Source of the DNA: a phage
Strand: one strand, 5' to 3'
Sequence record: PQ400055.1
DNA: 64,000 bases
Below the pieces are notes generated by a model. The model made no database searches and was not told the DNA's origin. It was given only the letters and a program-made list of their open reading frames with translations. This document shows, in pieces, positions 59,762-64,000 of the stretch. Positions within the stretch are counted from its first letter, which is position 1. Each line of letters begins with the position of its first letter. Both the position numbers and the translations under genes were made by a program.

Positions 59762-60736
59762 TTACATCGCTAACAGAGAGTCAAGATCATCCAGATCAGA
59801 AGCGGAGGAAGTACCGCCACCCAGGTCCAGAGATGCCATCAGGTCATCAGCGGAAGAATCTAACGCCGTGCTAGCTGCGTTAATACCAACTACAGTGCTA
59901 GCTGCGGTCATACCAGAATCGAATGCATTCATCTGTGCGTCAAAATCGTCAAGCTGGCTGTTAATCGCTGCCGCAGCACTGGAAGCCGCAGCACCAGCTA
60001 CCATAGAAACGCCCATAGTTTTCTTAAATTTGGTTTCCAGTTCATCGAACGGTTTAAACTGGCTAGGCGCTACAATCTCACTCAGATCAACCATGTTTTC
60101 CATCAGATATTTCTGATATGCTTCGTCTTCAATTTTCGGAAGCTGTGATTGCTGCATGAAACGAGAATCATCATAGTTCTGGTGTTTATCAACCTTCTTA
60201 GCTTTCAGGAGGAAGTTAGCACCGGAGAACACACAAGTTACATCTACCGGAACTTCGCCCATGTCGGTATTCACGTTCACCATTGCAACGATCTTATCAT
60301 AAATTTTCTGACCGAAGCGGAATTTGAATACCTTACCTTCATTTTCTGGTGCTTGAGGATCTTTCAGTACCAGAATATTTGCGTAGTAAGACGCTTTACG
60401 CTTAATCAGTTGCCATTCGGTTTTATCGGTATTGTACAGGTCTTTTTCGTTAATATATTTGCACACAGGGCAAGAATCAAAATCACCGTGGGTGCTTGAG
60501 CAGTTTTCCCAATACCATTTACCATTAACTTTGAAGGAATGGTTTACCAGTTTCACAATCGGCAGACCGTCTTCTGTCTTAGACGGCAGGAAGCGAATCA
60601 GGGCTTCACCGTTACCTGCTGCATCAGTCTTAATCTTCCACTCTTTCGGATCTTCTTTGGAGAAACCGTTGCCACCTTTCAGTGCGGCCAGTTGAGCTTG
60701 CAGTTTGGAAGAATCTTGGCGTTTAAACATATTCAC
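59762..60736 (-). CDS. 32: single-stranded DNA-binding protein gp32
   Basis: MFKR.., [37 protein letters not shown] match T4 gp32 from memory; acidic C-terminus. Confidence 0.9.
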
Positions 60737-61480: not shown

Positions 61481-61750
61481 TTAAATATCGAGAGTGTTGG
61501 TCGGTTCGTCGATCACTCCCTTCCTGAGCGTTCTATTTACTATACATTCTTGTGTGATCTTGTCAATAATGGACACCGGAATATACTTCTGATAGTGACC
61601 ATATTCGATAGAGTTTTCCTCTACAAACTGCGTTGTCGCTTCAAGATAAGTCAATCCCTCTTCAACAACCAGTTTTTCGATTGCAAGACCGTTTGCTGTT
61701 TTATTCGCGGCTTTTACCGCATGTTCATTAAGCATTGAACACCCGATCAT
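61481..61750 (-). CDS. 33: late transcription co-activator gp33
   Basis: LTYLEATTQFVEENSIE and C-terminal NTLDI resemble T4 gp33 from memory; position after gp59. Confidence 0.65.
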   Translation of the reverse strand: MIGCSMLNEHAVKAANKTANGLAIEKLVVEEGLTYLEATTQFVEENSIEYGHYQKYIPVSIIDKITQECIVNRTLRKGVIDEPTNTLDI

Positions 61751-62003
61751 AGAGTTCTACTGCTTCATCGCGTTCTGCTTCGAAGGTTTCGCGCTGTTGC
61801 TGGTGATACAGTTTAAACAGAATGCCCCACATTTTACCATCTACGCCTAATTCTTCTTTAGCACGCTGTTTGATCTCTTTGATCTTATCGCCATATGCTT
61901 CTTGAATGGTTTTCTGATCGCTGGCTTCTTTAATCAGTTGTGCCAGGGTATTTCCGTGTACATTTTCATCGAATACTACTTTTTCTTTTTTCTGTTCAGT
62001 CAT
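61728..62003 (-). CDS. dsbA: small DNA-binding protein, DsbA-like by position
   Basis: 91 aa (T4 DsbA 89 aa); position between gp33 and rnh; sequence not recalled. Confidence 0.45.
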   Translation of the reverse strand: MTEQKKEKVVFDENVHGNTLAQLIKEASDQKTIQEAYGDKIKEIKQRAKEELGVDGKMWGILFKLYHQQQRETFEAERDEAVELYDRVFNA

Positions 62004-62008
62004 AATAT

Positions 62009-62605
62009 TTAACCCTCTTTCGTCATTAATTGAAAACCACGTTCAGCTTTTGAAATTTCGCTAGGACTTAAATCGTCACCCACATATTCTAGCATCATTT
62101 CTCGGATAATGTCAAGTGCTTTTTCATCACCTGATTTTAACTCGAACTCAAGTTCATAGTGAGCATCTCCCATGACTTCGCCGACTTTGCAATAATAGAA
62201 AGTGTCTTTGCACATTTCCACTATAGCACCCTCAAGGTCAAGTGTCAATGACTTGCGGTATGTCATTACTTGCAATAAAGGAACGATAAGGTCGGAGTTT
62301 ACGCCTAGACTATCAACATAATGATAGAAATCATCCATTGTTGAAAAAGTGATTTCTTCTCGGTTGAAGAGTCCAGATTCACGATCACCTATTTTGACCA
62401 TGATCAATGATCTATTAACGTCAAGTCTAGCATAAATTCCTTTTCGACGCAGTGCATGATCTTCGGTATCATAATAAAATTCGTGTTTTAGTGTGTTAGC
62501 ATGATCTACGATATTGTACCCGTCATACATTGCTACCCACAAATCACAGATTGTTTCGACGCCAATTTGTGAGTGTGCATAGTATTTTAATTCAAGTTCT
62601 TTCAT
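62009..62605 (-). CDS. CYTH-domain protein (triphosphate tunnel metalloenzyme; class IV adenylate-cyclase/triphosphatase-like)
   Basis: N-terminal ExExK (KELELKYY), YYDTEDHALRRKGIYARL (YxD..R.R), C-terminal ELEFELK; 198 aa; not present at this locus in T4. Confidence 0.55.
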   Translation of the reverse strand: MKELELKYYAHSQIGVETICDLWVAMYDGYNIVDHANTLKHEFYYDTEDHALRRKGIYARLDVNRSLIMVKIGDRESGLFNREEITFSTMDDFYHYVDSLGVNSDLIVPLLQVMTYRKSLTLDLEGAIVEMCKDTFYYCKVGEVMGDAHYELEFELKSGDEKALDIIREMMLEYVGDDLSPSEISKAERGFQLMTKEG

Positions 62606-62615
62606 ATGTCAACCC

Positions 62616-63563
62616 TTAGAACTCACCAATTTTCTGCAACATTTTAACTAACGCATTTGTTACAAAATAGTTATAAATTTTACCGCGTGGTGCTGGTTTA
62701 GATTTTTCCCATGCTAACAAAATTTCATATTCGATGTTATCAGGAATAAATTCAAAATCAATAAGTTCGCGGTTTTCGTCAAAGCGTCGTGCTTCTTCCT
62801 CTGTCATCAAAGACTTTGGATCTTCGGCATCGAAAATTTGCTCTAACCATTTGGTTGCAATTGGTTTAGCTCGTTCTCCTTCCAGTCGTGAGATAATGAA
62901 ATCACTACGGCACTTGATAGAAGCTACACCGTCTTTTGCGTCACCCTTAACACATTTTACCATAAGGTCTTTGTAAGGGCTACCATATTTGCATTTCTTC
63001 CACGCTTTCTGTACTGGCGACCACTGTTTCACGTTTTTGTATTTGTGCAACTGTGTGTAGTCACCATCGCCGGAGTTGATTAGCACCTGGCGACCTTCTA
63101 CAGAAAACTTTTTAGTTAATACAGCGATTATATCATCCGCTTCAACTTTGTCAACCTTAATAACGTGATAAGGCATGTTCTCTTTAAACTCTTCGGTGAT
63201 CTTATTGATCGCAGCAAAGATCATCTCCCAATCACGCGGATCTGCGTCTCGTTTTTCCTTACGGTTGCGTTTATAGTAAGGTGCGATATCACGTCGCCAG
63301 TAACCTTTGCTTGAATCAAAGGCAAGTACCGTAATTGGGTATTGCTCTTTGAATTTTGTCATATTATAACGCATGGTGTCAAGGATAAGATGACGGATCA
63401 TACCTTCATTAATAGGATCTTCCGGTTTAAAGGTATGTGAGATAGTAGCAATCATAAGCTGCGACATATCAATCAAATGCACACCTTCCGGCAGTTTATC
63501 TTCTGGATCATCGAAGAAATCATTAAGTGTAGCGGTCGTTTTTGTAAATGGGTTATACGTCAT
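62616..63563 (-). CDS. rnh: RNase H (5'-3' exonuclease/flap endonuclease)
   Basis: KGYWRRD, YYKRNR, MPY, EADDIIAVL, SGDGDYTQLHKYKNVKQWSP, PRGKIYNYFV match T4 RNase H from memory. Confidence 0.9.
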   Translation of the reverse strand: MTYNPFTKTTATLNDFFDDPEDKLPEGVHLIDMSQLMIATISHTFKPEDPINEGMIRHLILDTMRYNMTKFKEQYPITVLAFDSSKGYWRRDIAPYYKRNRKEKRDADPRDWEMIFAAINKITEEFKENMPYHVIKVDKVEADDIIAVLTKKFSVEGRQVLINSGDGDYTQLHKYKNVKQWSPVQKAWKKCKYGSPYKDLMVKCVKGDAKDGVASIKCRSDFIISRLEGERAKPIATKWLEQIFDAEDPKSLMTEEEARRFDENRELIDFEFIPDNIEYEILLAWEKSKPAPRGKIYNYFVTNALVKMLQKIGEF

Positions 63564-63565
63564 AA

Positions 63566-63751
63566 TTAAGTTCTCTCCACTCTCACAACAACATATTCGC
63601 CAAACGAGTTAGATACTTCACGGTCATACCCGTACTTCTCCATAACTCGCAGAATTGCATTGTTTAATTCGGCACGGAAATAATTGTAATCCTTATCAGG
63701 GATTCTGTCAACTACCCATTTTGCACCTTCTGACAAATCAACTTTAACCAT
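63566..63751 (-). CDS. small hypothetical protein
   Basis: 61 aa ORF directly upstream of rnh. Confidence 0.45.
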   Translation of the reverse strand: MVKVDLSEGAKWVVDRIPDKDYNYFRAELNNAILRVMEKYGYDREVSNSFGEYVVVRVERT

Positions 63752-63757
63752 AATATA

Positions 63758-64000
63758 TCATCCTCTTTTTGGAAAATTTAAATAAGCATACTCGCCAACT
63801 ATTTCATGTGCTGCACGGTCATAAGCCTTAGCCGCCTCAACTTCTGTCTCAAAGTATCCTAGATGTATATTCTTTCGATTGATAACAATATACGCCTTCC
63901 ACGGCTTTTTCTTGCTTGGTGATAATGACACACCTTTATATTTGCTATGGCAAGCCTTTTTCTTTGAGACGTTAAACTGATTTTGCTGTTCGGTTGCTTC
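63758..64000 (-). CDS. AP2-domain protein, likely HNH homing endonuclease C-terminal part; gene continues beyond window
   Basis: Minus-strand translation ..YKGVSLSPSKKKPWKAYIVINRKNIHLGYFETEVEAAKAYDRAAHEIVGEYAYLNFPKRG* is a textbook AP2 DNA-binding domain. Confidence 0.6.
   Translation of the reverse strand, partial: EATEQQNQFNVSKKKACHSKYKGVSLSPSKKKPWKAYIVINRKNIHLGYFETEVEAAKAYDRAAHEIVGEYAYLNFPKRG

Follow-up and report, generated by a model that had tools for sequence, protein, structure and literature searches.

The stretch analysed here (the window) comprises 64,000 nucleotides of phage sequence record PQ400055.1, and our subject is a single gene near its end, an open reading frame (ORF) on the minus strand that encodes a 198-residue protein of the CYTH, or triphosphate tunnel metalloenzyme (TTM), family. 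The window is that of a Krischvirus, an RB49-like T4-type coliphage; the 2.3 kb around the gene match Krischvirus RB49 OZ035808 at 99.0% identity and the RB49 reference at 96.9%. In the ORF listing the gene has an ATG start and a sequence identical to the one quoted in an earlier note on this DNA, and because it begins at the first start codon past an in-frame stop, an N-terminal extension is impossible. That note had placed the gene between dsbA and rnh, and Pfam matches identify both neighbours as such (Table 1); past dsbA follow gp33, gp59 and gp32, all on the minus strand. The gap between rnh and the CYTH gene is 10 nt and that between the CYTH gene and dsbA is 5 nt. Because the short gap to rnh holds a ribosome-binding site lying over the rnh stop codon, and that to dsbA is shorter still, the CYTH gene is probably co-transcribed with rnh as a member of the rnh transcription unit.

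Table 1. The CYTH gene, its parts and its immediate neighbours, in window coordinates (pS and pN, proportions of synonymous and nonsynonymous differences; aa, amino acid).
Feature	Position	Strand	Basis
CYTH/TTM gene, orthologue of RB49ORF244c, 198 aa	62009..62605	-	
Ribosome-binding site AAGGG, Shine-Dalgarno-like, 7 nt upstream of the CYTH start and overlapping the rnh stop codon	62613..62617	-	Read from the sequence
rnh (T4 RNase H / 5'-3' exonuclease), upstream neighbour	62616..63563	-	Pfam RNaseH_C, 128 bits, and 5_3_exonuc_N
dsbA, downstream neighbour	61728..62003	-	Pfam Phage_DsbA, 78 bits
Hypervariable core cassette, codons 10-150	62156..62578	-	DNA identity, allele comparison
Conserved 3' third, codons 151-198 and stop, part of the conserved backbone	62009..62155	-	pS 0.03-0.28 and pN <= 0.017 between alleles; aa identity 96-100%
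ExExK motif (E3, E5, K7), codons 3-7; predicted metal-site-2 glutamates	62585..62599	-	Invariant in three alignments; aligns with YgiF E4/E6/K8; role from PMC4641920
Y-A-R-L-D, codons 58-62: R60, predicted catalytic Arg (YgiF R56); Y58, at the position of Trp53 of thiamine triphosphatase; D62, in place of the second Arg	62420..62434	-	
E-L-E-F-E-L-K strand (beta8), codons 151-157: E153, predicted metal site 1 (YgiF E160); E155, predicted site 2 (YgiF E162)	62135..62155	-	Rule from PMC8233210
S-K-A-E-R-G of the C-terminal plug helix, codons 185-190	62036..62053	-	Alignment; model helix 186-195

The protein is a member of the CYTH/triphosphate-tunnel family. The Pfam CYTH profile (PF01928) matches residues 2-190 of the protein over profile positions 2-178/179. 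Its score of 28.8 bits (E 1.3e-6) exceeds the curated gathering cut-off of 23.2, and the domain assignment thereby passes the check by profile match that the earlier note had set for it. An AlphaFold2 model, predicted from a shallow set of 17 aligned homologues, has a mean predicted local distance difference test score of 92.4 and shows eight long strands and a C-terminal helix, forming a barrel tunnel with a plug helix. In a sequence search of the PDB, YgiF was the sole significant match (E 0.009), and it is clearly the nearest solved structure as well as the nearest by sequence. NCBIfam profiles, including the cyaB profile TIGR00318, gave no match to the phage protein at E <= 1, and with two distant homologues they gave cyaB matches only, below threshold.

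The domain assignment is already public, since the CYTH/ygiF similarity of RB49ORF244c was recorded between 2003 and 2006. RB49ORF244c and its orthologues (PHROG 14893) are the same gene, at 98% identity; the RB49 GenBank record describes it as 'similar to P45267, P30871, HI1598, ygiF', and Nolan et al. 2006 list it with a CYTH domain (E 0.0026). PHROGs files the family as function unknown. What is added here is the exclusion of a cyclase function by published motifs, the deviation of its Y-x-R-x-D segment from the canonical WxRxR/RxR motif, and the polymorphism of a cassette within the gene.

Residues were compared in an alignment of 17 homologues, in alignments with distant homologues, Salmonella YgiF and mouse thiamine triphosphatase (ThTPase), and by matching a profile to PDB sequences. 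The ExExK motif (KELELKYY) and the C-terminal ELEFELK strand had been read correctly from the sequence, as E3, E5 and K7 together with E151, E153, E155 and K157 are invariant in the 17 homologues, and the ExExK glutamates are kept in the proper alignments with YgiF, mouse ThTPase and the distant homologues. Thirteen residues (E3, E5, K7, R60, K71, R82, E84, R117, E130, E153, E155, K186 and R189) are shared by the phage proteins and YgiF, D134 is likewise conserved in the alignments with distant homologues, YgiF and ThTPase, and S185, K186, R189 and G190 do not vary among phage and cellular homologues, the SKAARG of YgiF included. Martinez et al. (PMC4641920) found E6, R56 and E160 of YgiF, and the AtTTM3 equivalents, to be needed for activity and proposed a two-metal mechanism; K69, a substrate-binding residue equivalent to K71 of the phage protein, is also among the residues needed in the YgiF/AtTTM3 mutagenesis.

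The third motif named in the earlier note, a YxD..R.R segment, is wrong in one detail: the first arginine (R60) is present and the second is absent, so that the pair of tunnel arginines (RxR) is replaced by R60-L-D62. Y58, R60 and D62 are invariant in the 17 homologues, and at position 62 P0044 and P0045, phage homologues at a greater distance, carry D or N. From the conserved tyrosine (Y44, in the YYDT segment) to the first arginine there are 16 residues in each of YgiF, BH2851, GBAA_1210, SaTTM, mouse ThTPase and the phage protein, and R60 is therefore the catalytic arginine. A HMMER pairwise register that set Y58 opposite the catalytic arginine of YgiF was rejected because of this constant spacing in six CYTH proteins. 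The R-x-D sequence does not exclude membership of the CYTH family, because the second arginine is dispensable in AtTTM3, where its change to alanine (R54A) leaves activity without strong inhibition.

The earlier note had suggested that such an enzyme could make or destroy a signalling nucleotide. According to Vogt et al. 2021 (PMC8233210), class IV adenylate cyclases (AC-IV) carry the motif HFxxxxExExK, have a small residue in place of the central arginine, and have alanine in place of the second glutamate of the beta8 ExE. With M-K-E-L-E-L-K as its start and no upstream extension possible, the phage protein lacks the HF motif; the central arginine is retained (R60), and so is the second glutamate (E155, invariant). 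In contrast to CyaB and YpAC-IV (PDB 2FJT, 3N0Y), it thus lacks all three cyclase determinants. Making a signalling nucleotide is disfavoured on these grounds, whereas triphosphate hydrolysis remains the likely chemistry, and the residues kept argue that the protein is likely of the TTM/ThTPase type, a triphosphate hydrolase rather than an AC-IV. Several GenBank records annotate the gene as a class IV (CyaB-like) adenylate cyclase, which would make cyclic AMP; we consider this extremely improbable. With R60 and E155 kept, no HF motif and no match to TIGR00318, the 'adenylate cyclase' label is very likely an over-annotation, and historic labels of this kind on CYTH proteins are known over-annotations (Kohn et al.).

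Our preferred reading, to which we assign a probability of roughly 70%, is that the protein is a stand-alone two-metal TTM triphosphohydrolase, like the N-terminal TTM domain of YgiF without the CHAD domain. We infer its chemistry and substrate from the conserved residues together with the mechanism published for YgiF, AtTTM3 and ThTPase. The triphosphate part of the substrate would lie in the eight-stranded tunnel, held by K7, K40, R60, K71, R82, R117, K157, K186 and R189. One metal ion (Mg2+ or Mn2+) would bridge the phosphates to E153, and the other, on E3, E5 and E155, would activate a water for attack on the terminal phosphate, with R60 as the catalytic arginine; the products would be orthophosphate and the diphosphate form of the substrate. 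By analogy with nearly all TTMs, we expect tripolyphosphatase (PPPase) activity in vitro. We lean towards an organic, nucleotide-like triphosphate as the more likely target in vivo, because Y58 sits at the ring-stacking position of ThTPase, where Trp53 stacks on the thiazole ring of the substrate; because the phage clade has altered its tunnel, with Tyr58, Lys40 and Asp62 for the second arginine; and because E. coli already has abundant PPPase activity, which comes mainly from its pyrophosphatase, with inorganic tripolyphosphate (PPPi) undetectable there.

The two closest comparisons illustrate how the phage protein departs from its relatives. E. coli YgiF (PDB 5A60/5A61, TTM residues 1-200) has 433 residues against 198 and carries a CHAD domain that the phage protein lacks. 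Identity between the two is only ~25%, and the phage protein has Asp for the second arginine of RxR, Tyr58 for Gly54 and Lys40 for Leu; it is, moreover, phage-encoded and fast-evolving. Overall similarity to the mammalian 25-kDa ThTPase (PDB 5A64, 3BHD) is lower than that to YgiF; in this alignment Trp53 corresponds to Y58, R55 to R60 and R57 to D62.

The gene is a lineage-specific accessory insert of Krischvirus and its uncultured relatives, fixed in the slot between rnh and dsbA. By tblastn it is found in 59 phage records, all of them Krischvirus, and in 59 of 59 Krischvirus records; the records with an RNase H at least 90% identical to that of the window number 59, as do those matching the whole region. 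T4 has no such gene here, in line with the earlier note, its rnh and dsbA being 8 nt apart with nothing between, and rnh directly adjoins dsbA in Aeromonas phage UP87 (Biquartavirus) and Klebsiella phage KpV477 (Jiaodavirus). Among 5.8 billion protein clusters a search picked out only 43 related ones, all of ~200 residues. A profile search of 1.84 billion representatives gave 221 matches at E <= 1e-3 and only three at E < 1e-30; the remainder are ordinary CYTH proteins of ~200 residues or CYTH-CHAD proteins of ~500 residues. A scan of IMG/VR with the family profile yielded only three further Krischvirus-like loci and no new genomic contexts. The most divergent phage-type homologues are three from metagenomic contigs (45%, 38% and 30% identity). 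Each occupies this slot, ahead of dsbA and gp33, and in the sole contig of the three that reaches upstream (L007) rnh precedes the CYTH gene. The GC content of the gene is 0.377, and both its GC and its GC at third codon positions (GC3) are like those of its neighbours. Since its composition is like that of its neighbours and the slot is common to distant relatives, the insertion is old and stably inherited; recent horizontal acquisition was rejected on the same two grounds.

The nearest non-phage match is archaeal (P0046, E 6e-13; L010 8001-8606, a JGI 3300025323 contig). In the archaeal genome a PRK/uridine-kinase-family gene directly precedes the gene for P0046, an arrangement that echoes the kinase-TTM fusion of plant TTM1/2. 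In Escherichia phage vB_EcoM_G2494 (MK327935, 146593-147185) the CYTH ORF gives a two-piece match and is annotated as two hypothetical proteins, and truncated 130-residue versions exist at 98-99% identity (protein P0034, BFVD A0A482GBZ4, is concerned). These split and truncated ORFs reflect either sequencing frameshifts or occasional natural inactivation.

Within this fixed slot the gene itself is strongly polymorphic. Against phage Skers, DNA identity is ~50% from ~62575 to 62160, with sharp edges, whereas the rnh, dsbA and gp33 flanks are 95-100% identical and the last 48 CYTH codons 97-100%. Among six Krischviruses the mean pairwise identity is 0.73-0.80 in the cassette versus 0.95-1.0 outside it, the deepest trough of the 4-kb block of replication genes. 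With metagenomic proteins there are at least six allele classes, which share 39-80% identity in the core and 96-100% in the C terminus (88% for allele P0035). An overlapping regulatory element as the cause of the identical C-terminal third is unnecessary, dsbA, gp33 and gp59 downstream being equally identical. For moderately diverged alleles, the ratio of nonsynonymous to synonymous substitution rates (dN/dS, omega) is 0.22-0.42 in the CYTH gene versus 0.04-0.13 in rnh. In the Skers allele the synonymous sites are saturated amid flanks with dS of 0.03-0.2, and this points to a recombinational origin of the Skers-type cassette, with a far more distant donor. The CYTH protein shows only 31-44% identity in relatives that keep 65-80% in DsbA, gp33 and RNase H.

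The variation is not spread evenly over the protein. Of the 36 strand residues of the cassette that are predicted to face the tunnel, a set defined by strand parity and not by geometry, 19 are invariant, versus 6 of the 105 others (Fisher p 4e-9). Because the tunnel-facing residues are invariant and omega is below 1, the active site is, on this comparison of alleles, under purifying selection, its predicted chemistry conserved while the exterior turns over fast. The pattern of the cassette suggests diversifying pressure, albeit short of proof, since the 3' end of rnh and the gp32 of phage Brandy are also mosaic. The patch in rnh is smaller (62686-62805, minus strand) and has 62-84% DNA identity to Skers, RB49, Phi1 and GEC-3S and 99-100% to Brandy; outside it rnh is 93-100% identical. 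The gp32 gene (59762-60736) of Brandy has 61-93% DNA identity to the window in patches. In RB49, Phi1, GEC-3S and Skers gp32 is 91-100% identical over most of its length, with Skers at 52-67% in the first ~60 nt, beside an HNH insertion.

The alternatives differ mostly in what the enzyme would act upon. The simplest is a plain inorganic tripolyphosphatase or short-chain polyphosphatase like the TTM domain of YgiF, which would clear PPPi, such as that produced by host dGTP/dNTP triphosphohydrolases, or supply the pools of phosphate and pyrophosphate. It is the default by homology, YgiF being nearest in both structure and sequence; all PPPi- and two-metal-binding residues are kept save one arginine, and some GenBank records carry the annotation 'inorganic triphosphatase'. 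We nevertheless regard it as possible but doubtful, as E. coli pyrophosphatase supplies most PPPase activity in a cell where PPPi is undetectable, the loss of the second tunnel arginine and the gain of Tyr58 and Lys40 are specific to the phage clade, the CHAD domain that accompanies YgiF is absent, and so fast an evolution would be surprising in a housekeeping scavenger. The position of the gene invites another substrate. Directly downstream of rnh in every genome and in the distant relatives, it could encode an RNA 5'-triphosphatase that takes the gamma-phosphate off 5'-triphosphorylated RNA, whether the pentaribonucleotide primers destined for RNase H or the 5' ends of host or phage mRNAs, whose state would control decay. 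Virus-encoded TTMs of this activity exist in the Cet1-type RNA triphosphatases (mimivirus, vaccinia D1, baculovirus LEF-4), which also have a two-metal acidic patch, but the Cet1-like family is not the closest to the phage protein by fold or profile: the Cet1, mimivirus and vaccinia enzymes are far more distant than YgiF, BH2851 and ThTPase, and Pfam mRNA_triPase is not among the listed matches. Primers are processed in T4 and in other genera that lack the gene, and adjacency in T4-like phages often marks an insertion hotspot rather than a functional coupling, so that we judge this role decidedly unlikely. That the protein has lost catalysis altogether and serves as a CYTH-fold binder, soaking up a phosphorylated ligand or playing a structural part as Med18/20 do, would accord with its fast-evolving surface and with D62 in place of a tunnel arginine. 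All metal-binding and catalytic residues are, however, invariant across alleles down to 30% identity, and we give this reading hardly any weight.

A narrower form of the triphosphohydrolase reading is that the enzyme destroys a triphosphate-bearing immune or toxic nucleotide of the host, with the hypervariable surface as the product of an arms race. Candidates would be deoxyinosine triphosphate (dITP; Kongming), inosine triphosphate (ITP) or dITP (RADAR), the ddhNTPs of viperin, and linear oligonucleotide intermediates or signals that carry a 5'-triphosphate. Such triphosphate signals do exist, dITP being an example; at least six allele classes with cassette-like variability lie within near-identical backbones, the gene evolves ~2-3x faster than its neighbours by the protein identities given above, the tunnel is invariant and the exterior variable, and the changes at Y58 and D62 hint at a substrate other than PPPi. 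In the Kongming study, phage deoxynucleoside monophosphate (dNMP) kinases trigger dITP and the known phage countermeasure depletes the dAMP precursor, no dITP-degrading phage enzyme being reported there. Were this reading true, the protein would be the first CYTH-family anti-defence enzyme, and its exchangeable exterior on a fixed tunnel would record a contest with host proteins able to detect or block it. Attractive as it is, we think it unlikely. The family carries neither a PADLOC nor an anti-defence annotation, five of its members matched none of the PADLOC defence models, and a paper on a screen of phage accessory genes does not mention the CYTH gene. Mosaic patches occur also in the housekeeping neighbours (the rnh 3' end and the gp32 of Brandy), recombination alone can make such patterns, and with omega below 1 positive selection is not demonstrated.

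Several points also weigh against our preferred reading and an organic substrate. D62 in place of the second arginine could weaken triphosphate binding, though the R54A form of AtTTM3 stays active. Val or Ile takes the place of Y58 in P0044 and P0045, two of the more distant phage proteins, so the hint of aromatic stacking is not clade-wide. The structural model comes from a shallow alignment, and strand parity, not geometry, defined the tunnel-facing set. YgiF, the closest characterised relative, is a specific PPPase, and by that analogy plain PPPi hydrolysis is possible. Literature on CYTH/ygiF with phage, RB49 or anti-phage contained no functional or biochemical study of any family member.

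RB49-type phages use unmodified cytosine. The CYTH triphosphatases scattered in jumbo phages have been speculated to degrade unmodified nucleotides (Iyer et al.), an idea that for this reason does not obviously apply to the RB49-type phages.

Some features of the surrounding DNA are recorded here in their own right. The dsbA and gp33 ORFs as called overlap by 23 nt (61728-61750), as they do in the annotations of RB49 and T4. Between 61400 and 64000 there are 13 sigma70-like promoter matches, compared with 7.3 +/- 2.4 in shuffled sequences, a modest excess of what are consensus matches only; 10 of the 13 are on the coding (minus) strand, and one within rnh (63154-63127) is a perfect TTGACA-16-TATAAT. 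Two others, again consensus matches only, overlap the CYTH start codon (62612-62584) and fall in the conserved last third of the CYTH gene, ahead of dsbA (62115-62086). A search near the CYTH gene for the late-promoter consensus TATAAATA found no match.

A 57-residue ORF (63758-63931, minus strand) has an AP2 DNA-binding domain by a Pfam match of 27.4 bits, below the gathering threshold of 33.3, and from ~63750 to 64000 the alignment of the window breaks down (identity 0.2-0.4) with five other Krischviruses, which have a short intergenic stretch before gene 34. This region is probably an inserted or remnant homing endonuclease of the AP2/HNH type. Phage Skers has an HNH homing endonuclease gene between gp59 and gp32 (L001 5802-6398) that is absent from the window (~60803), and T4 has SegG at the same junction, which looks like a recurrent homing-endonuclease site.

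In practical terms, the 'adenylate cyclase' labels in GenBank are contradicted by published sequence determinants. The wider interest lies in the substrate. If it were merely PPPi and the protein a redundant tripolyphosphatase, the finding would be an ordinary one; if it were an immune or toxic nucleotide, the protein would represent a new enzyme class for phage counter-defence. CYTH enzymes are ancient and their biological roles mostly obscure, and a genus-wide phage member with a fast-evolving surface and a frozen active site would offer a tractable route to a real in vivo substrate.
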